Source: Candidatus Parvarchaeota archaeon | GTDB taxonomy: Archaea > Nanobdellota > Nanobdellia > Parvarchaeales > Parvarchaeaceae | Assembly (NCBI GenBank): GCA_023380585.1 | Contig: JAMCRN010000009.1 | Span: 2,524 to 66,523, forward strand | Direction of reading: 5' to 3' | Length of the DNA: 64,000 bases | In this document: positions 774-28,143 of the stretch, one piece after another | Layout: every line of letters begins with the position of its first letter | Position numbering within the stretch: position 1 is the first letter of the stretch | Program-made: the position numbers and the translations under genes | The notes under the pieces: generated by a model | The model's input: the letters and a program-made list of their open reading frames with translations, nothing else | Told to the model about the DNA's origin: nothing | Database searches by the model: none

Positions 774-1484
774 CTAAAAGGCTTTCCATAAAATTTTATT
801 CTTATCCTTGACCCTTTCCAATCTAGGCACATAATGCCTCAGTGCATTGAACAGGCTGCCGTCATTCCTCTTCGGCTCGTAGCAGCCTTTATTCAGTAAT
901 TCAACAACTGTGAGAAAATACCTCCCGCTGTACCTCTTCCTCCTGCTGACTATGCCCGCCGTCCACCTGCTTACAGTCCCTTCCGGCACGCCGAGCTGCC
1001 TCGCTATATCCACAACCATCATTCCCTGCCTTGCCATGATCACTGCCGCTCTCCTGACTTTCGGGGGATATTTCACGGGAGGGTTGGGGCTCGGTATGTT
1101 CCACTTGGACAGGGTGCCGATAGGCACGTTGAGCATCTTTGCGGCAGTGCTTTTTGACAGGCCGGACTTTATCATCCTCTCCGCTTCCTTCCTCACTTCA
1201 ACGGGATGGTACTGCCTGTTGCTGTTTATCCCGATAACCCACTTGGATACCGTCGTTATGGGAACGTTGAGCTGCCTGCTTATCTGCGATCTCGACAGTC
1301 CCTGCTCCGCCAGGCTTTTCGCCTTTTCCCTGACCTCTTTGGGATAGCCGGCTCTTTTGCAGTACCCTGTCACCCATGAAGCCGCAGTCCCTCTTTTAAC
1401 GCCGAGTTTTGCGGCTATCTGCATTATCGTCAGACCCTGCTTTGCCATCTCCCTTGCGGTTTCCTTCACGCTTTCCTGGTACAT
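774..1484 (-). CDS. DNA-binding protein with four tandem helix-turn-helix repeats
   Basis: Four ~46-aa repeats follow the pattern (E/K)VR..A......G(L/M)(S/T)..QI(A/S).(Q/K)L(G/N)VP.GT(V/L)S.W, resembling transposase/resolvase-type HTH modules. Confidence 0.6.
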   Translation of the reverse strand: MYQESVKETAREMAKQGLTIMQIAAKLGVKRGTAASWVTGYCKRAGYPKEVREKAKSLAEQGLSRSQISRQLNVPITTVSKWVIGINSNRQYHPVEVRKEAERMIKSGLSKSTAAKMLNVPIGTLSKWNIPSPNPPVKYPPKVRRAAVIMARQGMMVVDIARQLGVPEGTVSRWTAGIVSRRKRYSGRYFLTVVELLNKGCYEPKRNDGSLFNALRHYVPRLERVKDKNKILWKAF

Positions 1485-2515: not shown

Positions 2516-2611
2516 ATAATACTAACCTTAACGTAATTGACATAGTAAAATACCGAGGTATGTTTCTTGGGCTTCTGAAAAAAATAAATGTAGAGAGAAG
2601 GTGTGCTTTTA

Positions 2612-2644
2612 GGGGGAAAGAGACTCCTTTATTTCCACTGGAAT
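2612..2644 (-). promoter_or_regulatory. full-length ORB element (minus orientation)
   Basis: The reverse complement reads ATTCCAGTGGAAATAAAGGAGTCTCTTTCCCCC. This matches the TCCAGTGGAAA(T/C)GAAA ORB core, with a G/C-string element about 15 nt downstream. Confidence 0.6.
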
Positions 2645-2797
2645 ACATTTTGTTTTTATCCTGCTTCATGATTTTCATATTATTTTTTATCATACGTAAC
2701 ACCGTGTATTACTATTATTATAAATATTATTTTTATAGGAAGCTAATACTATTTAAATCTTTCGTTTGTGAGACGCTCAAAATCAACAACGATTATT

Positions 2798-2820
2798 TCT
2801 CCATTGGAAATTTTGATGGG
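2798..2820 (+). promoter_or_regulatory. mini-ORB element (plus orientation)
   Basis: TCTCCATTGGAAATTTTGATGGG; dyad core TCCAttGGAAAT followed by a GGG string. Confidence 0.5.
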
Positions 2821-2848
2821 TTGTTTTTAATTCTTTAAGAGAAAGCAT

Positions 2849-2884
2849 GTTTCCTATGGAATAGACCTATATTTCCACTGCAAG
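2849..2884 (-). promoter_or_regulatory. tandem pair of mini-ORB-like elements (minus orientation)
   Basis: The reverse complement reads CTTGCAGTGGAAATATAGGTCTATTCCATAGGAAAC, two adjacent half-ORB matches. Confidence 0.45.
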
Positions 2885-2967
2885 CTTATTTTATTATATT
2901 TATATTATTCTATATAGTATATATAATATAGGAGACTTTATTTTAAATTATTTAAACGACTTATTTT

Positions 2968-2990
2968 TTTCCATAGGAAATATAGGTGTG
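2968..2990 (+). promoter_or_regulatory. mini-ORB element (plus orientation)
   Basis: TTTCCATAGGAAATATAGGTGTG; the same dyad core as the other elements. Confidence 0.45.
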
Positions 2991-3013
2991 TCAGCATTCT
3001 TATATAAAAAAAG

Positions 3014-3046
3014 TTATATAACTAAAGTATATCAACTTTAGTTATA
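3014..3046. repeat. perfect 12-bp inverted repeat hairpin inside the AT-rich DUE
   Basis: tataactaaagt, then atatca, then actttagttata. Confidence 0.5.
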
Positions 3047-3106
3047 GTATCTATTTAAATAGAAATTGACTAAATAAAGTATAAAACTTAGTGAATTATT
3101 TTTGAT

Positions 3107-4366
3107 ATGGACATAAATATTTCAGATACACAAAAGTTAGAGAGACTGAAAACTGAAGGTAAAAATAAATCAAACCCAAAAGACATATTCAATGAATTTC
3201 TTTTAAAGAAAAAAATCTTTAAAGATAAGGAAGTGTTATCATCCTCATTCGTTCCTGACACTATACAGCATAGAGATGAAGAAATAGAATTTATTTCTAA
3301 TATATTCGCTCCGAGCCTTTTGTTAGAAAGAGTCTCGAATCTCCTGATATATGGTTTCTCTGGTACAGGAAAATCCTTAGTTACGCGTTACGTGGCAAAA
3401 CAACTTTCTTCTATATCTATGGAAAAGAATGTAAATGTACTCCCAATTTATGTTAATTGCCGCCTAGAAAACAACAACACAGAATACCGTCTAATATCGA
3501 ACTTATGTTCTATTTTTGGAGTAAAAGTACCGACAAGCGGCCTTTCTGTAAATGAATTGTATAAAAAAATGACAAAAGCGATAGATGTAGAAAATAAATC
3601 GATTATACTCATAATAGACGAAATAGAAAAGCTCATCCAAAGCGCAGGAGATAGCGTCCTGTATAGCTTATTAAGGCTAAACGAATCGATGGCGCATGCT
3701 AAAATATCGATAGTTGGAATATCAAATAACACAGATCTTAAATCATTGCTGGACCAGAGGGTGAGAAGCTCGTTGAGTCCGTTGGAATTGGTCTTTAGAC
3801 CTTATAACGCAGTTGAGATAGGGAATATCTTAAAAACAAGAGTACATGATTCCTTTTATGAAGGGACTGTGGATGAAAGTGTTATACAAAAATGCGCTGC
3901 CATGTCTGCGCAAGAGCACGGAGATATACGAAAGGCTTTGAACTTGTTATTAGTCGCAGGGGATATAGCACAAAAATCTAGAAAAAGCAGAATAGAGGAG
4001 GAAGATTTAGACAAAGCGGTTGACGTTCTGGAACAAAATATAACAGAAGCGGTCGTAAAATCAATGACAAAACAGAGCAAATTGGTGCTTTACTCTATAA
4101 TATCTATCTCTAAAGGAAAAAGGATGGGGAGGGTCTACAGCGGAGAAGTATACGATACATATGTTAAATTAGCAGACAGATACGGTATGAAAAGGCTTAC
4201 TTTCAGAAGAGTCTCGGATTTAATCGCTGACATGGACTACAATTCTATAATAATGTCAAAAATAAGAAGTCATGGGAGATACGGCAGAACAAGAGAGCTG
4301 AACCTTGCATTCGCGCCTACTTTGTCCGATAAGATAGAAAACATAATAAAAAATAATTTAGTATAG
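3107..4366 (+). CDS. orc1: Orc1/Cdc6 origin recognition / replication initiation protein
   Basis: AAA+ Walker A (LLIYGFSGTGKSL) and Walker B (IILIIDEIEKL), plus a winged-helix C-terminal region. It sits immediately downstream of the ORB cluster. An A/T box-like tatatata sits about 25-30 nt upstream of the ATG, consistent with a leaderless start. Confidence 0.9.
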   Translation: MDINISDTQKLERLKTEGKNKSNPKDIFNEFLLKKKIFKDKEVLSSSFVPDTIQHRDEEIEFISNIFAPSLLLERVSNLLIYGFSGTGKSLVTRYVAKQLSSISMEKNVNVLPIYVNCRLENNNTEYRLISNLCSIFGVKVPTSGLSVNELYKKMTKAIDVENKSIILIIDEIEKLIQSAGDSVLYSLLRLNESMAHAKISIVGISNNTDLKSLLDQRVRSSLSPLELVFRPYNAVEIGNILKTRVHDSFYEGTVDESVIQKCAAMSAQEHGDIRKALNLLLVAGDIAQKSRKSRIEEEDLDKAVDVLEQNITEAVVKSMTKQSKLVLYSIISISKGKRMGRVYSGEVYDTYVKLADRYGMKRLTFRRVSDLIADMDYNSIIMSKIRSHGRYGRTRELNLAFAPTLSDKIENIIKNNLV

Positions 4367-4414
4367 GTCCGTAGAACTAAATAAAGATAAATATCTACAA
4401 GTTTTACTTCTATA

Positions 4415-7400
4415 ATGAAGCGTTTTCTTTTGGGGAAGAGATCCCAATCAGCATTGGAGTATCTAACAACGTACGCCTGGGAGTTTGCTCTTATAATTTT
4501 AGTGGTTGTTGCGCTGTTTTATACAGGCGTGTTCAATACCTCCGGATTCTTCTCATCCGCACCCGTTTTTTCTGGATTCAGCGGTATTTCGATACAGAAT
4601 GTAGTAGCAAATTCCACTGTAGTTGAACTGTCAATGGTCAATGATGAGAACTTTGGAGTAAACATTACAAATATGGCGCTCGATTACAACGGTCAGAATT
4701 TCACTGTGTTCTCATGCACAGAGTATTCACTATATCCTGGTGAGAACACAATCTGCGCTTTTGTGGGATCTTTCCCCCAAAGACGTATATCTACACACTT
4801 GTACATAGACTACAGTACAAACTCAATAAACACTCTATCAGCAGGGAGTATACTATTCTCTCCATCTAACTCCGCTGTCAAGTTCCCATTCATAAAAACA
4901 GAATTAAACTTCACAATAACAAATCTACAGAGCACAGCGACGTCGGCGCCATTCCAGCAAGAGATAACTTTTGATCCGCAGTTCCTGCAGCAGTACGAAT
5001 CCAGCAACCTCGGCAATATACGATTCTATGAAGGAGCACAAGAGTTATACAGCTGGTGCCAAAGCGGATGCTCCTCCTCTTCAGATAATGTAACATTCTG
5101 GGTAAATTTACCGAACGGTGTAGGCGCAGATTCTTCCCTGAATTTAACAATAGTATTCTTACCTTTGGCAAATTACGATGGTGTCTACGCTGGAGAAGCG
5201 CCACAGCTCTCCCCGATATACGCCGAGTATGATAATGGGGCTGATGTGTTCCCGGAATTGTATAATAATTTCAAAGGGACTACATTGAATGGCTTTAGTG
5301 GCGGGACCTATAAAATCGATAATGGTCTTACTATATATGACAATGGCAATTTAGTTTCTACCTCAGCAATACCAGACGGAAACACTGCTGTAACCATTTT
5401 TGGTCTGTTTGACTCTGGCGGCGCAGTATACTCCGGCTCGGGTAGTACATATGCATTGGGTTATGATTTTTACGACGGCAGCGGAGGAACAGGGCTTAGT
5501 TATGCTTTGAACTCAAATTCCGGTGGCAATGTAAATTGCGAAAATTTCGACACAAATAAATCTTGGGGTGCGTCAGCCGTTCCTATAAATACAACAGGTT
5601 TTTATTCTCTTTATTCGATTTATAAATCAGGTAATTTAACGACAGAATTTTATTTCAACAATATTTTCGACTGCGCAGGGAGTTGGCTTTCTGGTAATCC
5701 TTTTTACAACTCATTCTCTTCAACGAGCGACTTTCAATTTTATACGCAGACAACCTCGAATGCCTATGAATATTGGCAGTATATATTTGCGAGAACATTG
5801 CCCCCCAACGGTGTTATGCCGACTGTCTCCGGGCCGCTAGTCACCAGAGTGCCTATAACTTTTACTAACTACCAAGGCACTTCTACGCCGTCTCCTTTCC
5901 AACAAATGGTAACCGTGAACTCCTCACATTTCTCTAAATATGAAGCTAATAATCTAGATAACGTTTTTTTCTTTTATTCTAATGGGACTATCGTGCCTTC
6001 ATGGCTTGAATCAGGCGATGTAGCTACGTTTAATGGCGAGACCACCTCTTATAATTTAGGCGGAACTTCGTCGTATATACAAGGGTCGTCCCCCTACGTT
6101 TTTCCTTTATCTGGCTTTGCTTGGGTCTATGATAAGAACTATGGTACTAGCAATTTTCAGGTAATATTTGAATTTGATGGTAACACTCAAGGGAGTAGTC
6201 AGTTCGAGCTAGCGCTCAGTACAAGCGGGCAATTGAGATTCTGGAACGGGTCAGAGAACTTTTTATCCTCCTTAACCGTACCATTGGATTCATGGAGCCT
6301 AGTTGGGTTTTCTGTGGATTCCAACAATATAAACCTATACGTAAACGGACAAATAGAGTCTTTCCCCACCTCTAACGCCCCTCAGGATCCAGGAGACGGA
6401 TATTGGATAATAGGATGGCAGAACTGCTGCGGTGATAGAGACTTTAACGGAAGCATATCAAACGTCCAGCTATACTCATCAGCACTGTCCAAAACCCAAG
6501 CTGATCAATTATATTTAAGCGGACCATCGGGGTCTCCTCTACAGAATGGAGAATTGGCGGGTTGGTGGCCTCTTCTTGGTAATGCGAATGACATGAGCGG
6601 GAACAACAATAATGGTGTAGTGAACAACGTTTCGTTTACTTTCACCAGTTCGGCAAGCACAAAAACCACATATTGGTTAAAGATAAGTTCTATTCCTGCA
6701 GACTCAACAAAAACAGTGTATATAGGATTCGCGCCTCCCTATATAAATTCCTTCAACAGACTTACTGGAGAAGCGCCACAGCTCTCCCCGATATACGCTG
6801 AATATGATAATGGAGCAAAACTGTTTAATGACTATTGGAATTTTAATGGAACGTCTATGCCCTCTGCTTTTAGCGTAGTGAACCCGAATAGCAAAAGTAC
6901 AATAAGTGTAGACAATGGATTATATATCGCACCATACCCCAATAATTACGCAGGGATAGAGTATAACAGTGTCTTTAACCCCGATTCTGTAGTAGAATAT
7001 TATGAGGTAAGCTCTTATTCAGTACCAAATTGCTGGGCCGTAGGAGAGGCAGTCGGCTCATTTAACAGCTCTGGCGGCTATCTTTATGTTTATGCGTATC
7101 CGCCTGGCAGCGTGTACGGCCAGCTCGGATGGAGTGCCGGTAATATCGTTTTAAGTGATGGGGTAATATATAACCAAATTTTTAGAAATATTACGCGCAG
7201 CAATGTCATAATAGGAGAGGCTTGGCCGTCGGAAAATTTACAGGTGTATTATGCGGATGGACAGGACAGACAGGTGTCGTCAACAAATGAGCTTCTAATA
7301 AAAAGTGGAATAAGCTTCAGCTTTGGGGGGTATTACTGTACAAACGGGTCCTCTATATATACACGTTGGATCAGGGTAAGAGCATATCCCCCAAACGGCA

Positions 7401-7435
7401 TTATGCCAGCCGCCAGCTTTGGAGGAGTGATATAA
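4415..7435 (+). CDS. large (1006 aa) class III signal peptide (type-IV-pilin-like) surface adhesin with internally duplicated ConA/LamG-like modules
   Basis: The N-terminus MKRFLLGKRSQSALEYLTTYAWEFALIILVVVALF is an archaeal prepilin-type signal. GEAPQLSPIYAEYDNGA occurs twice, about 525 aa apart. PPNG(V/I)MP motifs mark the module ends. GWWPLLGNANDMSGNNNNG is a LamG_3-type motif. The protein is rich in Asn/Ser/Thr sequons. Confidence 0.75.
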   Translation: MKRFLLGKRSQSALEYLTTYAWEFALIILVVVALFYTGVFNTSGFFSSAPVFSGFSGISIQNVVANSTVVELSMVNDENFGVNITNMALDYNGQNFTVFSCTEYSLYPGENTICAFVGSFPQRRISTHLYIDYSTNSINTLSAGSILFSPSNSAVKFPFIKTELNFTITNLQSTATSAPFQQEITFDPQFLQQYESSNLGNIRFYEGAQELYSWCQSGCSSSSDNVTFWVNLPNGVGADSSLNLTIVFLPLANYDGVYAGEAPQLSPIYAEYDNGADVFPELYNNFKGTTLNGFSGGTYKIDNGLTIYDNGNLVSTSAIPDGNTAVTIFGLFDSGGAVYSGSGSTYALGYDFYDGSGGTGLSYALNSNSGGNVNCENFDTNKSWGASAVPINTTGFYSLYSIYKSGNLTTEFYFNNIFDCAGSWLSGNPFYNSFSSTSDFQFYTQTTSNAYEYWQYIFARTLPPNGVMPTVSGPLVTRVPITFTNYQGTSTPSPFQQMVTVNSSHFSKYEANNLDNVFFFYSNGTIVPSWLESGDVATFNGETTSYNLGGTSSYIQGSSPYVFPLSGFAWVYDKNYGTSNFQVIFEFDGNTQGSSQFELALSTSGQLRFWNGSENFLSSLTVPLDSWSLVGFSVDSNNINLYVNGQIESFPTSNAPQDPGDGYWIIGWQNCCGDRDFNGSISNVQLYSSALSKTQADQLYLSGPSGSPLQNGELAGWWPLLGNANDMSGNNNNGVVNNVSFTFTSSASTKTTYWLKISSIPADSTKTVYIGFAPPYINSFNRLTGEAPQLSPIYAEYDNGAKLFNDYWNFNGTSMPSAFSVVNPNSKSTISVDNGLYIAPYPNNYAGIEYNSVFNPDSVVEYYEVSSYSVPNCWAVGEAVGSFNSSGGYLYVYAYPPGSVYGQLGWSAGNIVLSDGVIYNQIFRNITRSNVIIGEAWPSENLQVYYADGQDRQVSSTNELLIKSGISFSFGGYYCTNGSSIYTRWIRVRAYPPNGIMPAASFGGVI

Positions 7436-7536
7436 ACAATGAAGAGTACTGGCTTTTATACCCAGAAGGCAGTTATTTAGAATACCTATTTTGCCTGCTT
7501 AACATGCATTTATACTAATTTGACAATACTATTTTA

Positions 7537-7872
7537 ATGGAAAAAGAAAAGACCGAGATTTTACCATTTTATCATATAGGGAGAGTCATAAAGTGTTTGA
7601 CGAAGATAAATTCAGACAGCGCTGATAAAAAATACAAAGCTGTAGTGGAGATGTGGGACAACAATATAATAACGTGCGAAACCGGTGGATTAAAAGTAGA
7701 AGACGGCGATTTCGTCGTTGTATTATTCGATGGTGTGGTACAGGGCAACAATGTTATAATGCATCCCTCCAAGATAACAGATAAGATATCAAAGCAGACT
7801 GGAGAAGAGCTCTGGGAAAATTTCAAAAAGTTTTTCGACAAAGCAAAACCTCCGCACCCCATGACAGGGTAA
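7537..7872 (+). CDS. hypothetical small protein, cotranscribed with the downstream ferritin-like/VIT1 gene
   Basis: A 111-aa ORF whose stop lies 2 nt before the next start. I recognise no motif. Confidence 0.45.
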   Translation: MEKEKTEILPFYHIGRVIKCLTKINSDSADKKYKAVVEMWDNNIITCETGGLKVEDGDFVVVLFDGVVQGNNVIMHPSKITDKISKQTGEELWENFKKFFDKAKPPHPMTG

Positions 7873-10303: not shown

Positions 10304-11341
10304 TTAAAGGCCTCCGCCTCCACCCAGCTGAGAGCTAGCGAAGAAAGTGGAAACGCCGAACCTGACCACGAAAAATATCGCTATTCCTATCAAAGCGTAA
10401 ATAGGCGCTTTTTTCATTCCATCTTTTGCCTTTCCCGTGTTCAATATTCCCCCGAGTATGGCGCTCGAGCCAGTTGTTATTATGACATTTATAACCGAAA
10501 TGACCAGTATAAGAGTTACAGGCACGCTAGGAAGGCTAAATGATGAAAATATACCGACCCCAACAGAGGGAACGTTCGCCGTAGAGGCACCAGATACTTT
10601 GCTTATATTATCAAGTATACCTATAAGGAAGGATGCGACACCGTAGAGTAGTGGTGCAGCTATTGTAGAAGCCAAAAATATAAAAAGAGCATAACTCCTG
10701 ACCTGGGCTTTCATATCATTCCTTATTGACTCGTTTTGAAGCATGTTGTCGGCCAGGTTTTCCAGGATCAGATGTAATTCAGCCCCAGCACGTATTCCCT
10801 CAGATATTATCCGCATCGTATCCTTAAAGAACAGAGAACTCGTACGTCCTGACATATCCATTAAAGCCTCCGCGAAATTTCTACCACCTTGGACTTCAAT
10901 AGCGGCGCTGCTAAGCAGGTAGTTTAGTTTCCCGAATTCTGGCTTTATGGAAGCGAGAAAAGAATTCTCAGGTATCATCCCCGCGCGCAGGTTCGCCGCC
11001 ATCAACAGGAGCATATCTGGCAGGACCTTCTCTATGCTAGTCGCTACGGAGTCAGAGATGGCTGAGAACACAGAATCTATCAATACGCTCCCCCCGAAAT
11101 ACACAAGAGGCGCGCTCACAATAGAAAAGATTATACTTTTAGTGAATACAAAAAGGACTATCGGCACCAAAACCGTCATTATCAGAATAGCGAGCGTTAC
11201 AAGGCCTGTGAGTTCAGATATTCTATCAGTGTTTATCTGGGCCGTCATTATATTGTTTGCAATGGATTTCCTTACTTTACTAAAAAGAAGAAATTGTAAA
11301 TTGAACAGAAAGTTGTGCTTCTCGTCCATCTCACACACCAA
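10304..11341 (-). CDS. type II secretion system F-like (TadC/FlaJ-like) pilus assembly membrane platform protein
   Basis: A polytopic membrane protein with the T2SSF-type organisation. It overlaps the upstream T2SSF-like gene by 11 nt and lies downstream of the FlaI-like ATPase. Confidence 0.65.
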   Translation of the reverse strand: MVCEMDEKHNFLFNLQFLLFSKVRKSIANNIMTAQINTDRISELTGLVTLAILIMTVLVPIVLFVFTKSIIFSIVSAPLVYFGGSVLIDSVFSAISDSVATSIEKVLPDMLLLMAANLRAGMIPENSFLASIKPEFGKLNYLLSSAAIEVQGGRNFAEALMDMSGRTSSLFFKDTMRIISEGIRAGAELHLILENLADNMLQNESIRNDMKAQVRSYALFIFLASTIAAPLLYGVASFLIGILDNISKVSGASTANVPSVGVGIFSSFSLPSVPVTLILVISVINVIITTGSSAILGGILNTGKAKDGMKKAPIYALIGIAIFFVVRFGVSTFFASSQLGGGGGL

Positions 11342-12233
11342 CAGCAGGCCTTCTGCTCTTTACCATCCCCATAAAGAACACCTGGAAAAGAATTAAGAAT
11401 GCAGGCACCATATATATCAGTGCAACTATGTCAAAATGCGCAAGAGAACCGAGTATTATGAAAACAGACATGCCTAAGCTAGGCAATACCACCGAAACAA
11501 GCATATAACCCATTGACATAGGAGTAAGTTCTGCGGCATAAGAGCGCATATCAGACTGCTGTTTTTTCACAAGCATGTCGTTTATGAGGGTAAGCGTTCC
11601 GCGCATGTCGCTACCTGATTTCATCGAATTTACTATTATGTCTATCGCCCTCCTAAGCGATTGGGATGGCACGCGTTTTGAAAGATTAGTGAGAGCTGCA
11701 TCCTGTCTTTCCCCAGACTGGATCTCTTCGACGGTTTTTTTAAATTCTGTAGAAACAACACCATAATCCCCGTTTGAAACGTCCAACAGTGCGTTAAATA
11801 CAGGCACACCAGATCCGACCTTTATCATAAGCTCTCTGACAGCAAAGACAACTTTCTCGTCTATTTTTGCCCTTCTTTTTGATGCAGATAACTTAGGATA
11901 GTTTATAAAGTAGACGAAATATATCCCCGGTACAAGGAAGATCATAAGGACCAGTATGGCGGTAAGATTCATCGTAAGTATCCCTTTTTTAATCGCTATC
12001 AGCAGTAATGAGACAGCTATTACAAGAAGCAATGCCATCAATGCCAGCGCTACGAATATACCGGCCGATACGTAATCCAATGGGTCTATATCTATCCCGC
12101 CTTCTATTAGAGACATTTTCAGGCCCTTCGTCGAATTTATAATTACATAGGCCAGCCCTTTGAACTTTCTACCAAAATACAAAGCCTTGTCTTGGCTTAC
12201 TATTATACTCGGCATTACCCTCTCTTTCATCAT
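11331..12233 (-). CDS. type II secretion system F-like (TadB/FlaJ N-half-like) pilus assembly membrane platform protein
   Basis: A cytoplasmic helical domain followed by TM helices, sitting between the ATPase and the second platform gene. Confidence 0.65.
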   Translation of the reverse strand: MMKERVMPSIIVSQDKALYFGRKFKGLAYVIINSTKGLKMSLIEGGIDIDPLDYVSAGIFVALALMALLLVIAVSLLLIAIKKGILTMNLTAILVLMIFLVPGIYFVYFINYPKLSASKRRAKIDEKVVFAVRELMIKVGSGVPVFNALLDVSNGDYGVVSTEFKKTVEEIQSGERQDAALTNLSKRVPSQSLRRAIDIIVNSMKSGSDMRGTLTLINDMLVKKQQSDMRSYAAELTPMSMGYMLVSVVLPSLGMSVFIILGSLAHFDIVALIYMVPAFLILFQVFFMGMVKSRRPAVGV

Positions 12234-12237
12234 ATCG

Positions 12238-13755
12238 CTAAGTCTCCAAAACTTCAGGCTCTTCGTCGGCGGCTACCACTCCCATTAACTTTTCTTTATT
12301 GATGTAATAATTACTCGTTATAAGTCCTATTTTATTTACAGAAGCCACTTTTTTATGGGACATCCATTTGAGGATTGACACTTTCTCGCTTATATCTTTT
12401 TTCATCTCTTCCGCGGTCATACCGGAATAAAGCTCCAGCTTGTTAGCGATCTTCTGTGATATGTTTATAGTCCTCTCTATCGTGTCTGTCCTTGGCTTCC
12501 ACTCGAATAGATTATTTGTTTTTATCTCCGTCTTTCCAACTACAGAACGTTCGGCGACTTCAGCAAGTTCAAGTACACGACGCAGCCCACTTCTTCTCTG
12601 CCTGAACGCTGTTATTACCAAGTCTAGGGTGGACACTTCTATCTCAGGAAGATTTATAGGCTCAGAAAGAAGCCTTTTAATAACCTGTTGGGCTGTTTCA
12701 GCATGAAGAGTAGCATAAACAGAGTGTCCAGTCATAAGCGCTTCAAAAAGAGTTTCCGCGTCTTCTTTCCTTCTTATCTCACCGACGACTAGTCTGTCGG
12801 GCCTCATCCTAAGCGAATTCAGAAGAAGATCAAGCATGGTTATCTCTCCTTTGCCTTCGGAATTAGGCTGCCTTGTAACCATCGGCACCCAGTGCAGGAA
12901 TCTAGGCAGAACAAGCTCATTTGTATCCTCTATCGTTATTATTCTCTGGTTCGGAGGTATGAAAGGTAAGAACACGTTCAGAAGGCTAGTTTTACCAGAT
13001 GCTGTACCTCCTGTTACAATCATAGACAGCTCGTACTGCATCGCTTGCCATACAAACGCGGTCAATTCTGGGGTTATAGTGCCCTTAGTGATAAAATCGA
13101 CGATTGTCCATGGTTCTTCTCTAAATTTTCTTATGTCGAAAGTGTTGCCGTGTACAGATATAGGATATAAGGTCGCGTTTACACGGTCGCCGTTGGGTAG
13201 CCTTGCGTCAAGCAAAGGAGATAGAGTGGTTATCTGCCTACCCACCTTCCTTGCGACTTGCTGTGCGAAGTTTTCTATCATCTTCTCTGTTTCTATCCTT
13301 ATAGTGGTCTCAAGCCAGCCATATTTTATGTGGTATACCATAACGTTGGTTTTGGAGTCGTTTACTACTATCTCTTCCAGATTCTTGTCATTGTCCAATA
13401 TCTCTAAGACCCCAAGTCCGAACATCTCATGGAGAAGCGTGGCGGATAACTCTATGTAAACTCTCTCCTCCATACCCGGAAGTATCGTCTTCAGCTTATC
13501 AGACGTAAGATCCAGAAAATCCGTCCTCAAAGTAGGGGAGTAGCTCTCAGACAGGGTCTGTATTTTAAGAGGGTACTCCTTTATCAATTCTGTCCTTATC
13601 TCTGTCAGCACCGCTCTGATTCCAGGGTCTATAGCCGGCACTTTTATATTATACACAGATGTAAATTTACCAGGCACTCTCTCGATGCTTACCCTAGCTA
13701 ATACACCGTCAGAAATAACGTCATAGCTTTCAAGCACTTCGACGCGCTGCTCCAT
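12238..13755 (-). CDS. archaeal type IV pilus/archaellum assembly ATPase (FlaI/VirB11/GspE family)
   Basis: Walker A IVTGGTASGKTS, a Walker B/Asp box RIITIEDTNEL, a His box ATLHAE, and an N-terminal FlaI-like domain. Confidence 0.85.
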   Translation of the reverse strand: MEQRVEVLESYDVISDGVLARVSIERVPGKFTSVYNIKVPAIDPGIRAVLTEIRTELIKEYPLKIQTLSESYSPTLRTDFLDLTSDKLKTILPGMEERVYIELSATLLHEMFGLGVLEILDNDKNLEEIVVNDSKTNVMVYHIKYGWLETTIRIETEKMIENFAQQVARKVGRQITTLSPLLDARLPNGDRVNATLYPISVHGNTFDIRKFREEPWTIVDFITKGTITPELTAFVWQAMQYELSMIVTGGTASGKTSLLNVFLPFIPPNQRIITIEDTNELVLPRFLHWVPMVTRQPNSEGKGEITMLDLLLNSLRMRPDRLVVGEIRRKEDAETLFEALMTGHSVYATLHAETAQQVIKRLLSEPINLPEIEVSTLDLVITAFRQRRSGLRRVLELAEVAERSVVGKTEIKTNNLFEWKPRTDTIERTINISQKIANKLELYSGMTAEEMKKDISEKVSILKWMSHKKVASVNKIGLITSNYYINKEKLMGVVAADEEPEVLET

Positions 13756-26766: not shown

Positions 26767-28143
26767 TCAGGGAGTTATTTCTATATCGTCGTACGGCCCG
26801 ATATCGTCCGTTATATTATTTATCATTTGATACAAAGGAGGGGATAAAACTGCTATATGGCCTGGGTTAGACCTGTATGAAACGTATACATACCCATTCG
26901 GAGTAACTGCGACGCCAGGTACCTGGTCGCCAAAAAAATTAGGCAATGTTATATTATCTTCTATGGCATACGTTTTCGGATTTATGATTAAAAGCGAAGA
27001 ATTTGGCGATTTAACCTCTGTTAAATAGACATTTCCATTGGAATAAGTGATTGCTTGCGGATTAGGCCCGGTGGATATGTTTATTATATACGAATTTGTT
27101 GTGGAATTAAAAACAGAAACTGTATCCCCTTCCCAATTCCCTACCCAGACGGTGCCATTAACAGCCTGTACAAAAACAGGATAACTTAAACCAGTTATAT
27201 TCTTGATTATCTTGCCTGCTGATGGGGAAACAACGAACACGTAATTTTGTCCCGACAGCCCGCAAGTCGGCCATCCATTCTCATTAGTTATATAAACATC
27301 TCCAGTATCGCTTACGCCTAAAGTAGAGATACAATTTGTAGGGATAGGGATAATTTGGGTTACACTATTTTTATCTAAACTGTAAGCCACCAAATCTCCA
27401 GCCTTTCCAGTCCCATTGAACAGGTATAAGAAACTCCCATTTAAACTGTAAACGCCCTGTCCAGCGTTTGGTATGTTTACAATTTTTGCAGGAGCCAGGG
27501 TATTTATGTTAACAATAGAGAATGAATCGGTAGAGTTTCTGAACAAGATGTAACTAGAATTAGGGGATTTCATAACAAAATAAGGTTCGAAAGCACCGAA
27601 GCGTTTTATTACTGTATCCGTGAACGTTGATGCTATATCAGTATAATTTGAATCCGCCATAGCTATTATTATGTAAGAATTCTTACTGCTGGTTTTGCCG
27701 AAGACTGAACCTGTTGAGATGTAAGGCCCAGAGAAAACCTGGCCCGGCTCTGTATAATTTATGTATACAGAATATGAATATACAGAGCCAATAACGGAAG
27801 GACAAACTCCGGGGACTAGAAAAGTGCTCATGGTATTTGGTGGTACCAAGGTATTAACGTCTGGGTAGTCCAAGTATTTTTTAGATCCGGATATTAACTC
27901 TATTTGTGAGATGTTTATAAGATTTCCAGTAGAGTCCCCAAGTGTCAAATAAAGGCCTTGATTCTGCACACAGGAAGCAGAAACGGTTCCTAAACCGGCG
28001 AAGCCTGTGACTGTGGCTGATATACTTGAGGATGGGGAGAAGATACCTAGGGAGTATAGGACTGCGGCTACGATGACTATTATGAGAATGGCCCAGCCAT
28101 AGGTCATCATGTACTCTAGGGCTGACTGGGATTTGGTTCTCAT
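26767..28143 (-). CDS. class III signal peptide (pilin-like) surface protein with beta-propeller/YVTN-like repeats
   Basis: The N-terminus MRTKSQSALEYMMTYGWAILIIVIVAAVLYSLGIF is shared with the 49461 and 60250 genes. The rest is divergent. Confidence 0.7.
   Translation of the reverse strand: MRTKSQSALEYMMTYGWAILIIVIVAAVLYSLGIFSPSSSISATVTGFAGLGTVSASCVQNQGLYLTLGDSTGNLINISQIELISGSKKYLDYPDVNTLVPPNTMSTFLVPGVCPSVIGSVYSYSVYINYTEPGQVFSGPYISTGSVFGKTSSKNSYIIIAMADSNYTDIASTFTDTVIKRFGAFEPYFVMKSPNSSYILFRNSTDSFSIVNINTLAPAKIVNIPNAGQGVYSLNGSFLYLFNGTGKAGDLVAYSLDKNSVTQIIPIPTNCISTLGVSDTGDVYITNENGWPTCGLSGQNYVFVVSPSAGKIIKNITGLSYPVFVQAVNGTVWVGNWEGDTVSVFNSTTNSYIINISTGPNPQAITYSNGNVYLTEVKSPNSSLLIINPKTYAIEDNITLPNFFGDQVPGVAVTPNGYVYVSYRSNPGHIAVLSPPLYQMINNITDDIGPYDDIEITP

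Follow-up and report, generated by a model that had tools for sequence, protein, structure and literature searches.

A probable pilin-like lectin adhesin of modular build encoded beside cdc6 in a Candidatus Parvarchaeota archaeon

What kind of surface molecule is encoded immediately downstream of the Orc1/Cdc6 gene of a Candidatus Parvarchaeota archaeon, and what might it serve? The question is raised by a coding sequence at positions 4415 to 7435 on the forward strand of a 64,000-nucleotide (nt) stretch of contig JAMCRN010000009.1, referred to throughout as the window. A preliminary description of this DNA had reported an open reading frame (ORF) there with a product of 1006 amino acids (aa), and both the frame and its length were borne out. 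The protein is 100% identical to NCBI M1293_00850, a 'hypothetical protein' from a Candidatus Parvarchaeota archaeon metagenome-assembled genome (MAG). On balance we regard it as probably a modular type-IV-pilin-like lectin adhesin of a host-dependent DPANN archaeon, either mounted at a pilus tip or held in the membrane. DPANN surface proteins in which DUF2341 and LamG domains stand on pilin-like leaders are already known, and the window protein is a further, unannotated member of that group.

Architecture of the 1006-residue protein

The order of domains from the N-terminus is a pilin-like handle, an N-terminal domain, DUF2341, a domain that we term V1, a second DUF2341 with LamG_3 nested inside it, and V2. 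The corresponding features of the window are as follows.

4415..7435, + strand: coding sequence of the 1006-aa modular pilin-like protein, the sole long ORF there
4415..4444, + strand: predicted leader peptide, aa 1-10 (MKRFLLGKRS), short and basic, with presumed cleavage before Q11
4445..4549, + strand: pilin-like handle or membrane anchor, aa 11-45; Q(+1)...E(+5), then a hydrophobic alpha-helix
4577..4879, + strand: all-beta N-terminal globular domain, aa ~55-155, with C101 and C114; AlphaFold2 strands at aa 58-150, predicted local distance difference test (pLDDT) 77-88; no Pfam match
4895..5182, + strand: DUF2341-like beta-sandwich #1, aa 161-256; BLAST against unit 2 E=2e-10; homologs carry PF10102; AlphaFold2 pLDDT 80-90
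5183..5839, + strand: V1 domain, aa 257-475, from GEAPQLSPIYAEYDNGA to LPPNGVMP; putative concanavalin A (ConA)-like jelly roll by homology to V2
5190..5250, + strand: junction repeat DNA, copy 1, encoding the start of V1
5840..6019, + strand: N-terminal half of DUF2341 #2, aa 476-535
6020..6649, + strand: nested LamG_3 (ConA-like) insertion, aa 536-745, including the trailing GWWPLLGNANDMSGNNNNG motif at aa 716-734 (nt 6560-6616)
6650..6757, + strand: C-terminal half of DUF2341 #2, aa 746-781; sub-threshold Pfam DUF2341 match at aa 747-772
6758..7432, + strand: V2 domain, aa 782-1006, from GEAPQLSPIYAEYDNGA to YPPNGIMP; modelled as a ConA-like jelly roll
6765..6825, + strand: junction repeat DNA, copy 2, 89% identical to copy 1 over 61 nt

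The N-terminus reads MKRFLLGKRS before the presumed cleavage point and QSALEYLTTYAWEFALIILVVVALFYTGVF after it, the full N-terminal reading of the product being MKRFLLGKRSQSALEYLTTYAWEFALIILVVVALFYTGVF. The leader, short and positively charged, has the ending [KR][G/A/S] and precedes at least about 20 hydrophobic residues that are modelled as a helix, and this segment (aa ~14-46) is the only hydrophobic, transmembrane-like one in the whole protein. The class III signal peptide of the preliminary description was borne out as regards its layout, the archaeal prepilin-type arrangement being present, kept in the homologs and common to three other surface proteins of the window. Across the homologs the leader pattern, [KR][AGST] before the cut and Q[SA][AS]xE[YF][LM] after it, is conserved, as retrieved with a regular expression that already demanded the Q and the E. 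In QSALEYL the Q takes position +1 and the E position +5, with Ala at position +3 where the EppA-type motif, reportedly QxSxExxxL (Pfam PF04021), has Ser. The QxxLE[YF]L pattern of the handle resembles that of EppA substrates. EppA is tied to clade 1 systems (PMC4858521). The all-beta domain that follows the helix is likely a pilin head or stalk domain.

The same handle was found on three further proteins of the window, in the form RSQSALEY(M/L)xTYGW, with the stretch RSQSALEYMMTYGWAILIIVIVAAVLYSLGIFSPSSSISATVTGF, ~45 residues long and identical in all three, soon after the first residues.

26767..28143, - strand: 458-aa beta-propeller (YVTN/NHL-like) surface protein, same leader and helix
49461..50588, + strand: 375-aa LamG_3 protein, same leader and helix
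60250..61422, + strand: 390-aa protein, same leader and helix; weak LamG_3 match of 24.9 bits, just under the Pfam cutoff of 27.6

Since beta-propeller and LamG-type ectodomains carry it too, the handle appears to be a general surface-display device of this archaeon. A search with the shared 60-aa handle for small major pilins returned only proteins of up to 103 aa, several of them partial and many on contigs shorter than 1 kb, and was uninformative.

Self-comparison by BLAST confirmed that the protein contains a significant internal duplication (aa 220-472 against aa 745-1001, E=4e-18, 29% identity; aa 167-225 against aa 482-541, E=2e-10), although not one of two units of ~450 aa as previously described. 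Unit 1 spans ~315 aa (aa ~161-475) and unit 2 ~530 aa (aa ~476-1006), the latter consisting of the unit 1 module plus a LamG_3 insertion of ~210 aa. The block GEAPQLSPIYAEYDNGA does have two copies, one at aa 260-276 (nt 5192-5242) and the other at aa 785-801 (nt 6767-6817); the DNA identity between nt 5191-5240 and nt 6766-6815 is 94% (47/50), rather than the 96% first given. PPNG(V/I)MP is common to the ends of both units, with the correction that unit 1 ends in LPPNGVMP and not in a YPPNG form, which only unit 2 has (YPPNGIMP).

A ConA/LamG fold had been anticipated, and it was recovered by two routes. Laminin_G_3 (Pfam PF13385) matches aa 569-695 with E=5.4e-17 and 62.8 bits against a cutoff of 27.6, and a Foldseek search of the full AlphaFold2 model against PDB returned ConA-like folds only, among them laminin LG domains, pentraxins, the receptor-binding domain of botulinum neurotoxin and a sialidase lectin domain. 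The motif GWWPLLGNANDMSGNNNNG, which had been taken for the start of this domain and placed between the repeats, holds neither position; it lies ~20 aa past the end of the Pfam match, inside unit 2. A circular permutation of LamG_3 was considered and rejected, in that moving the segment beginning GWWPLLGN ahead of the domain did not extend the match (HMM positions 23-149 of the profile hidden Markov model (HMM) in both cases; 68.1 bits native, 66.1 permuted). The TafC subunit of haloarchaeal Tat-fimbriae was likewise rejected as a relative: the model NF052521 scores 19 bits where 410 are needed and aligns with the LamG part alone (aa 585-706), so that the match reflects nothing more than a shared LamG domain. 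TafC and the other tafi subunits, moreover, carry a Tat-pathway signal, in contrast to the class III-type leader of the window protein.

The relation of LamG_3 to DUF2341 was apparent from two observations. The native protein scores 20.9 bits against DUF2341 (PF10102), below the gathering score of 23.4, while in silico deletion of aa 536-745 fused the DUF2341 fragments into a single Pfam match of 27.7 bits that spans the splice point. In colinear BLAST chains, the LamG-free homologs P0034, P0063 and P0020 run from query aa ~532 straight into aa ~748. Since the splice restores the DUF2341 match and LamG-free homologs join the same two points, LamG_3 is, as judged from sequence, an insertion within the second DUF2341 and not a spacer between repeats. 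This nested form occurs in 13 modules belonging to 11 of 120 homologs, alongside 114 simple modules. A precomputed PF10102 match is held by most homologs; DUF2341 #1, or unit 1 on its own, gave no Pfam match at E<=1.

The full-protein AlphaFold2 model, built from 36 sequences (mean pLDDT 65.6), is in keeping with this order. It comprises a helix at aa 13-36, the all-beta N-terminal domain, DUF2341 #1 at aa 162-248, and a DUF2341 #2 split around a beta-rich LamG, the V domains being only partly confident. V2 was also modelled by itself from 52 V-domain sequences (pLDDT 68.5; predicted template modelling (TM) score 0.69), and the matches of this model in a Foldseek search against PDB were L-type lectins (Emp46/47), legume lectins, calreticulin and GH16 glucanases, at a probability of 1.0 and a TM of ~0.55, the E values falling as low as 5e-6. 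As modelled, V1, LamG_3 and V2 are three lectin-type (ConA-like) domains in one protein.

The V domain and the family that carries it

The unit from which the protein is built recurs throughout the 120 listed homologs as a DUF2341-type segment of ~80-95 aa (PFQQ...SWxESG...FWVKL) followed by a V domain. The latter begins with GEAPQLSxxYxxYDNGANVF, continues through an interior of ~200 aa and closes with W.R.RAYPPNGVMPS. A V profile gave no match to PDB sequences, and member-by-member Pfam scans gave only weak DUF2341 matches at the domain edge. The possibility that V is a divergent LamG_3 was rejected, hhalign of V domains against the LamG segment of the family yielding a probability of ~0.1%. 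Going by the modelled fold, V is a third kind of ConA-like jelly roll, separate from LamG_3.

Conservation within V is confined to its edges. Across 125 V segments the majority-residue conservation was 0.76 and 0.67 at the two termini and 0.23 in the interior, and the 125 interiors fell into 41 BLAST clusters in which both interiors of the window protein are singletons. Identity to the closest homologs follows the same course, with 70-85% at the junctions, 50-65% in DUF2341, 35-40% in the N-terminal domain and 25-35% in the V interiors.

The two DNA copies of the junction repeat have a 32-nt exact run in common, where shuffled sequences gave an expectation of 0 such matches. Codons of the repeated block are identical at 13 of its 17 positions, against 6.4 expected from the codon usage of the gene (P~8e-4) and against 26/86 at other conserved positions (Fisher p=6e-4 for the excess). 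This excess of codon identity points to a short, recent homogenisation tract in this gene. At the J1 junction of P0003, P0005 and P0004, codon identity was at baseline. A family-wide nucleotide element at the junction was rejected, as the exact 20-mer is missing from six homolog loci (L001-L006) and the codon excess is local to this gene.

In the homolog P0004 (locus L004, 10001-14161), two DUF2341 segments at aa ~478-540 and ~813-875 are near-identical (PFQQMFTTDSAVYSAYEAPNLDNIQF(V/I)YQNGSIIPSWLESG) and precede V domains that are clearly different. This pattern suggests a recent duplication or shuffling of modules in that gene.

The window protein has 157 homologs, many with DUF2341 plus LamG_3, and among the GTDB species representatives 470 V-module relatives were recovered. 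Nearly all of the best 80 of these 470 belong to MAGs assigned to Micrarchaeota, Parvarchaeota or 'Nanoarchaeota'; ARMAN-5 and Ca. Micrarchaeum A_DKE, which is in culture, are among the 80. An exhaustive HMM search detected the V module in 3,060 representative clusters (50% identity) at E<=1e-3 and in 812 at E<=1e-30, the named carriers being almost all Micrarchaeota or Parvarchaeota. Members of the family hold up to 7 V modules and reach lengths of 4,712 aa, and the epithet 'giant' given to the window protein can thus stand in a relative sense only, 1006 aa being a middling size among them.

Two further observations concern particular members. In Ca. Micrarchaeum sp. A_DKE (NZ_CP060530.1, 256399-269583), two adjacent, overlapping loci (L038 and L029) hold frames of 2217 and 2208 codons that are free of stops throughout, which implies that both belong to a single giant gene, whose product would exceed ~4,390 aa, contain 5 or more V modules and offer a tractable member of the family in a cultured Micrarchaeon. 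V-module matches also turned up in bins labelled Nitrospirae, 'bacterium', Thaumarchaeota, Methanothrix and Thermoplasmata (L012, L016, L023, L024, L030, L057, L064, L072), mostly on short contigs, with the exceptions of L023 (124 kb) and L072 (14 kb); these could be mis-binned DPANN contigs or real transfer.

Genomic setting

The genes around the coding sequence that bear on its function are the following.

3107..4366, + strand: Orc1/Cdc6 gene, immediately upstream of the coding sequence; synteny anchor
7537-7872: small conserved cytoplasmic gene, ~111 aa, downstream of the coding sequence
10304..13755, - strand: candidate assembly machinery, ~2.9 kb downstream, convergent, a separate operon
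10304-11341, - strand: T2SSF/TadC-like platform gene
11331-12233, - strand: T2SSF/TadC-like platform gene
12238-13755, - strand: FlaI/TadA-type T2SSE ATPase

The genome thus has the assembly ATPase and platform genes of a type IV pilus (T4P). Downstream of the coding sequence the gene order is the small cytoplasmic gene, VIT1, a methyltransferase and a tRNA. Nine multi-transmembrane ORFs of the window were considered as prepilin peptidases and rejected: eight are instead a VIT1-family protein, two TadC-like proteins, two Na/H antiporters, NuoH, PAP2 and an LPG-synthase-like protein, and the ninth (240 aa) has no Pfam match and no GxGD motif. A scan for sigma-70 promoters and intrinsic terminators, which is not suited to archaea, found nothing above background.

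Four homolog contexts were compared. P0003, the closest full-length homolog, lies on the same strand as, and after, three genes whose products are a T2SSE ATPase (750 aa), a polytopic membrane protein (705 aa) and a cytoplasmic protein (221 aa); P0005 and P0027 (locus L006) follow cdc6, the latter retaining the small downstream gene as well; and P0004 sits among metabolic genes. As only P0003 neighbours a secretion ATPase, linkage to pilus machinery appears to be occasional and not constant. The arrangement of cdc6 followed by a large DUF2341-V protein is found in the window (3107-7872), in L002 (6760-12949) and in L006 (8689-12892), with the ~111-aa protein in the window and in L006 (12554-12892). 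The large proteins at this cdc6-adjacent position differ in length and architecture, with 1006 aa in the window, 1024 aa in P0005 and 826 aa in P0027.

Upstream of Orc1/Cdc6, an AT-rich intergenic region (window 2520-3106, GC ~0.32) carries an element resembling the origin recognition box (ORB), with a TTTCCACTGGAA core, in direct copies at 2626-2643, 2866-2883 and 2962-2979 and in inverted copies at 2847-2861 and 2969-2987. The region is probably a replication origin, to judge from these letters. Diverging from cdc6 across this putative origin is a gene (1598-2515, - strand) for a 305-aa Gly/Asn-rich protein with a Sec-type hydrophobic N-terminus and many N-X-S/T sites, which has no Pfam or NCBIfam match. 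Near the start of the window (774-1484, - strand) lies the gene of a 236-aa protein made of several helix-turn-helix (HTH) units, with HTH_23, HTH_28 and transposase-type HTH matches.

Function, rivals and significance

If the protein is the pilin-like adhesin that we favour, a class III signal (prepilin) peptidase would cut between S10 and Q11. The helix would then either be loaded by the nearby FlaI/TadC-type machinery into a type IV-like (Epd-like) pilus, at the tip or close to it, the only place where so bulky an ectodomain would be tolerated, or stay behind in the membrane and act as a stalk. With the DUF2341 sandwiches as spacers, the three lectin modules would project past the cell envelope, where they would bind glycans of the host cell (e.g. 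wall-less Thermoplasmatales) or of a biofilm matrix, and the variable V interiors would set ligand or host specificity. New architectures would come about through module duplication, LamG insertion into DUF2341 and recombination at conserved module junctions. That such a protein is more readily an adhesin than a major pilin had been put forward in the preliminary description; it is the best reading of the data, and agrees with published proposals for DUF2341 proteins (PMC4858521; Krause 2022).

Several points weigh against this assignment. The gene and the ATPase/platform genes do not form one operon, being convergent with VIT1, the methyltransferase and the tRNA between them; the 64-kb window yielded neither a prepilin peptidase nor a gene for a small major pilin; and just one of the four homolog contexts, that of P0003, is near a secretion ATPase, two being beside cdc6 and one among metabolic genes. 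Pfam and NCBIfam models of class III, pilin and archaellin families gave no N-terminal match even at E<=10 in scans of the first 46, 60 and 157 residues, a weak negative since short hydrophobic queries are hard for the HMMER filters. The topmost bacterial tip subunits (K and PilA) lack Glu5 according to Shahin et al., while the window protein has E(+5). Both AlphaFold2 models are of moderate confidence (65.6 and 68.5), and stretches inside V1 and V2 are poorly modelled.

Another explanation, possible though in our view doubtful, is a surface lectin that is anchored in the membrane and at no stage incorporated into a filament. Its class III-type leader would then serve for export and anchoring alone, as in the sugar-binding proteins of Sulfolobus processed by PibD, which acts on substrate-binding proteins besides pilins (PMC4858521), and the 100-kDa ectodomain would be part of a glycan-binding coat of the cell. 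The presence of one leader and helix on at least 4 unrelated ectodomains of the window suggests a generic display handle; the gene is outside a pilus operon, T4P genes are missing from most homolog contexts, and family members of 4,712 aa are hard to picture as pilus subunits. Set against this are the position of P0003, which follows a T2SSE ATPase gene on its own strand with two genes between them, one of these encoding a polytopic membrane protein, the occurrence of related DUF2341 proteins inside the Methanococcus epd locus with a pilus-related phenotype, and the conservation of Q(+1) and E(+5) as in assembled pilins, while bacterial modular pilins demonstrate that filament tips accommodate bulky subunits. 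A secreted or cell-bound polysaccharide-degrading enzyme, with V as a GH16-like hydrolase and LamG as a carbohydrate-binding module through which the symbiont would be fed from host or matrix glycans, we consider very unlikely. The best structural matches of V2 are indeed GH16 beta-1,3-glucanases, porphyranases and O-glycanases; however, equally good ones are non-catalytic (Emp46/47, calreticulin, legume lectin), and one GH16-fold match, Rv0315, is a pseudo-glucanase according to its depositors. V thus shares a fold with GH16 glucanases and L-type lectins in its V2 model while having no sequence similarity to them. The strict catalytic motif E-[ILV]-D-[IVAF]-[VILMF](0,1)-E is present in 0/125 V segments, those of the window protein included, and in a loose form in 2; residues of the interior are unconserved family-wide; and neither the full protein nor the V members gave a GH Pfam match.

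An anchored surface-layer (S-layer) or sheath glycoprotein, held by the N-terminal helix, had also been entertained in the preliminary description, and was not supported here; we hold it to be highly improbable. The product looks superficially S-layer-like in being acidic (pI 4.1), Ser/Thr/Asn-rich, poor in Cys and ~108 kDa in mass, with 19 N-X-S/T sequons. These sequons, however, are no more numerous than composition predicts (18.5 +/- 3.7), a Pfam scan of the full protein at E<=1 gave only LamG_3 and DUF2341 without any S-layer domain, and SLP_Mh, the S-layer protein identified in Micrarchaeota, is from another family, conserved and marked by PF05123 (bioRxiv 10.1101/2021.04.28.441871). The V-module family, in contrast, is multi-copy and hypervariable, and its architecture shifts at the same chromosomal position (1006 aa in the window, 826 aa in P0027).

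The pilin-like adhesin finds its nearest published parallels among DUF2341 proteins of arCOG03508, for which a tip-adhesin role has been proposed and whose genes occur in the Epd pilus loci of Methanococcus (Makarova 2016, PMC4858521). A DUF2341 gene of the epd locus is needed for transformation (PMC10133366), and the annotation of Micr_00366 of Micrarchaeum A_DKE proposes a role as a pilus-associated adhesin (Krause 2022). By domain content, these proteins (MMJJ_08210, Micr_00366) and the window protein are alike in being large archaeal extracellular proteins with DUF2341 (PF10102) from genomes with Epd-like T4P machinery. The window protein differs in that its DUF2341 passes the Pfam cutoff only after LamG has been spliced out, its gene is outside a pilin locus, and it carries a DPANN-specific V module that has no Pfam model. 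LamG proteins, for their part, are expanded in Micrarchaeota, and some are tied to T4P loci (PMC5498576). The LamG-like jelly-roll proteins of DPANN archaea (arCOG07813; Mia14, Undinarchaeales) share Laminin_G_3 with the window protein, are in some cases T4P-linked and have been proposed to act in host interaction; in contrast to them, LamG_3 is here nested in the DUF2341 of a DUF2341-V repeat protein, and the V modules form a separate ConA-like family. Filaments have been seen at contacts between Micrarchaeota and their hosts.

Outside the archaea, PilC of Streptococcus sanguinis, in which a pilin module is combined with a ConA-like lectin module, is a glycan-binding protein of the pilus tip (PMC9934059, PMC8179133). 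Such bacterial modular pilins (also PilB, CofB and ComZ) likewise have a class III-type handle fused to bulky modules that include ConA-like lectins. They are an analogue and not a homologue of the window protein, whose leader is of archaeal type, with Q at +1, and is not recognised as a bacterial N-methylation motif, and which has three lectin modules and two spacers in its 1006 aa, whereas PilC is of 52.8 kDa and the largest protein of the bacterial survey has 860 aa.

It could be envisaged, although we think it unlikely, that DUF2341-V modules make up a cassette system that switches host or ligand specificity, the hypervariable lectin interiors being swapped, duplicated or interrupted within and between genes, with the conserved junctions (GEAPQLS..YDNGANVF and W.R.RAYPPNGVMP) as what may be recombination handles. 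Hints in this direction are the 13/17 identical codons at one junction, the differing architectures at the same position and the P0004 copies of DUF2341 joined to unrelated V domains; the codon-identity excess is, however, missing in three other genes. If the idea were true, the locus adjacent to cdc6/oriC would be a fast-evolving determinant of DPANN host range, comparable to pilin antigenic variation or to the shuffling of phage receptor-binding proteins.

Taken singly, the gene fits existing proposals for arCOG03508 and for DPANN LamG proteins, and is an informative example more than a surprise. What is new is the V module as a definable domain family without a Pfam model, the clear nesting of LamG_3 within DUF2341, the conserved place beside cdc6 despite a changing architecture, and an archaeal counterpart to the 'modular pilin' concept known from bacteria, in which the lectin modules outnumber those of the bacterial examples compared. 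Parvarchaeota, Micrarchaeota and similar DPANN archaea depend on physical attachment to host archaea. The V-module family is a concrete candidate for their host-recognition layer, because it is large (~3,000 clusters), apparently concentrated in these lineages, and combines a pilin-like handle with hypervariable lectin-fold domains.

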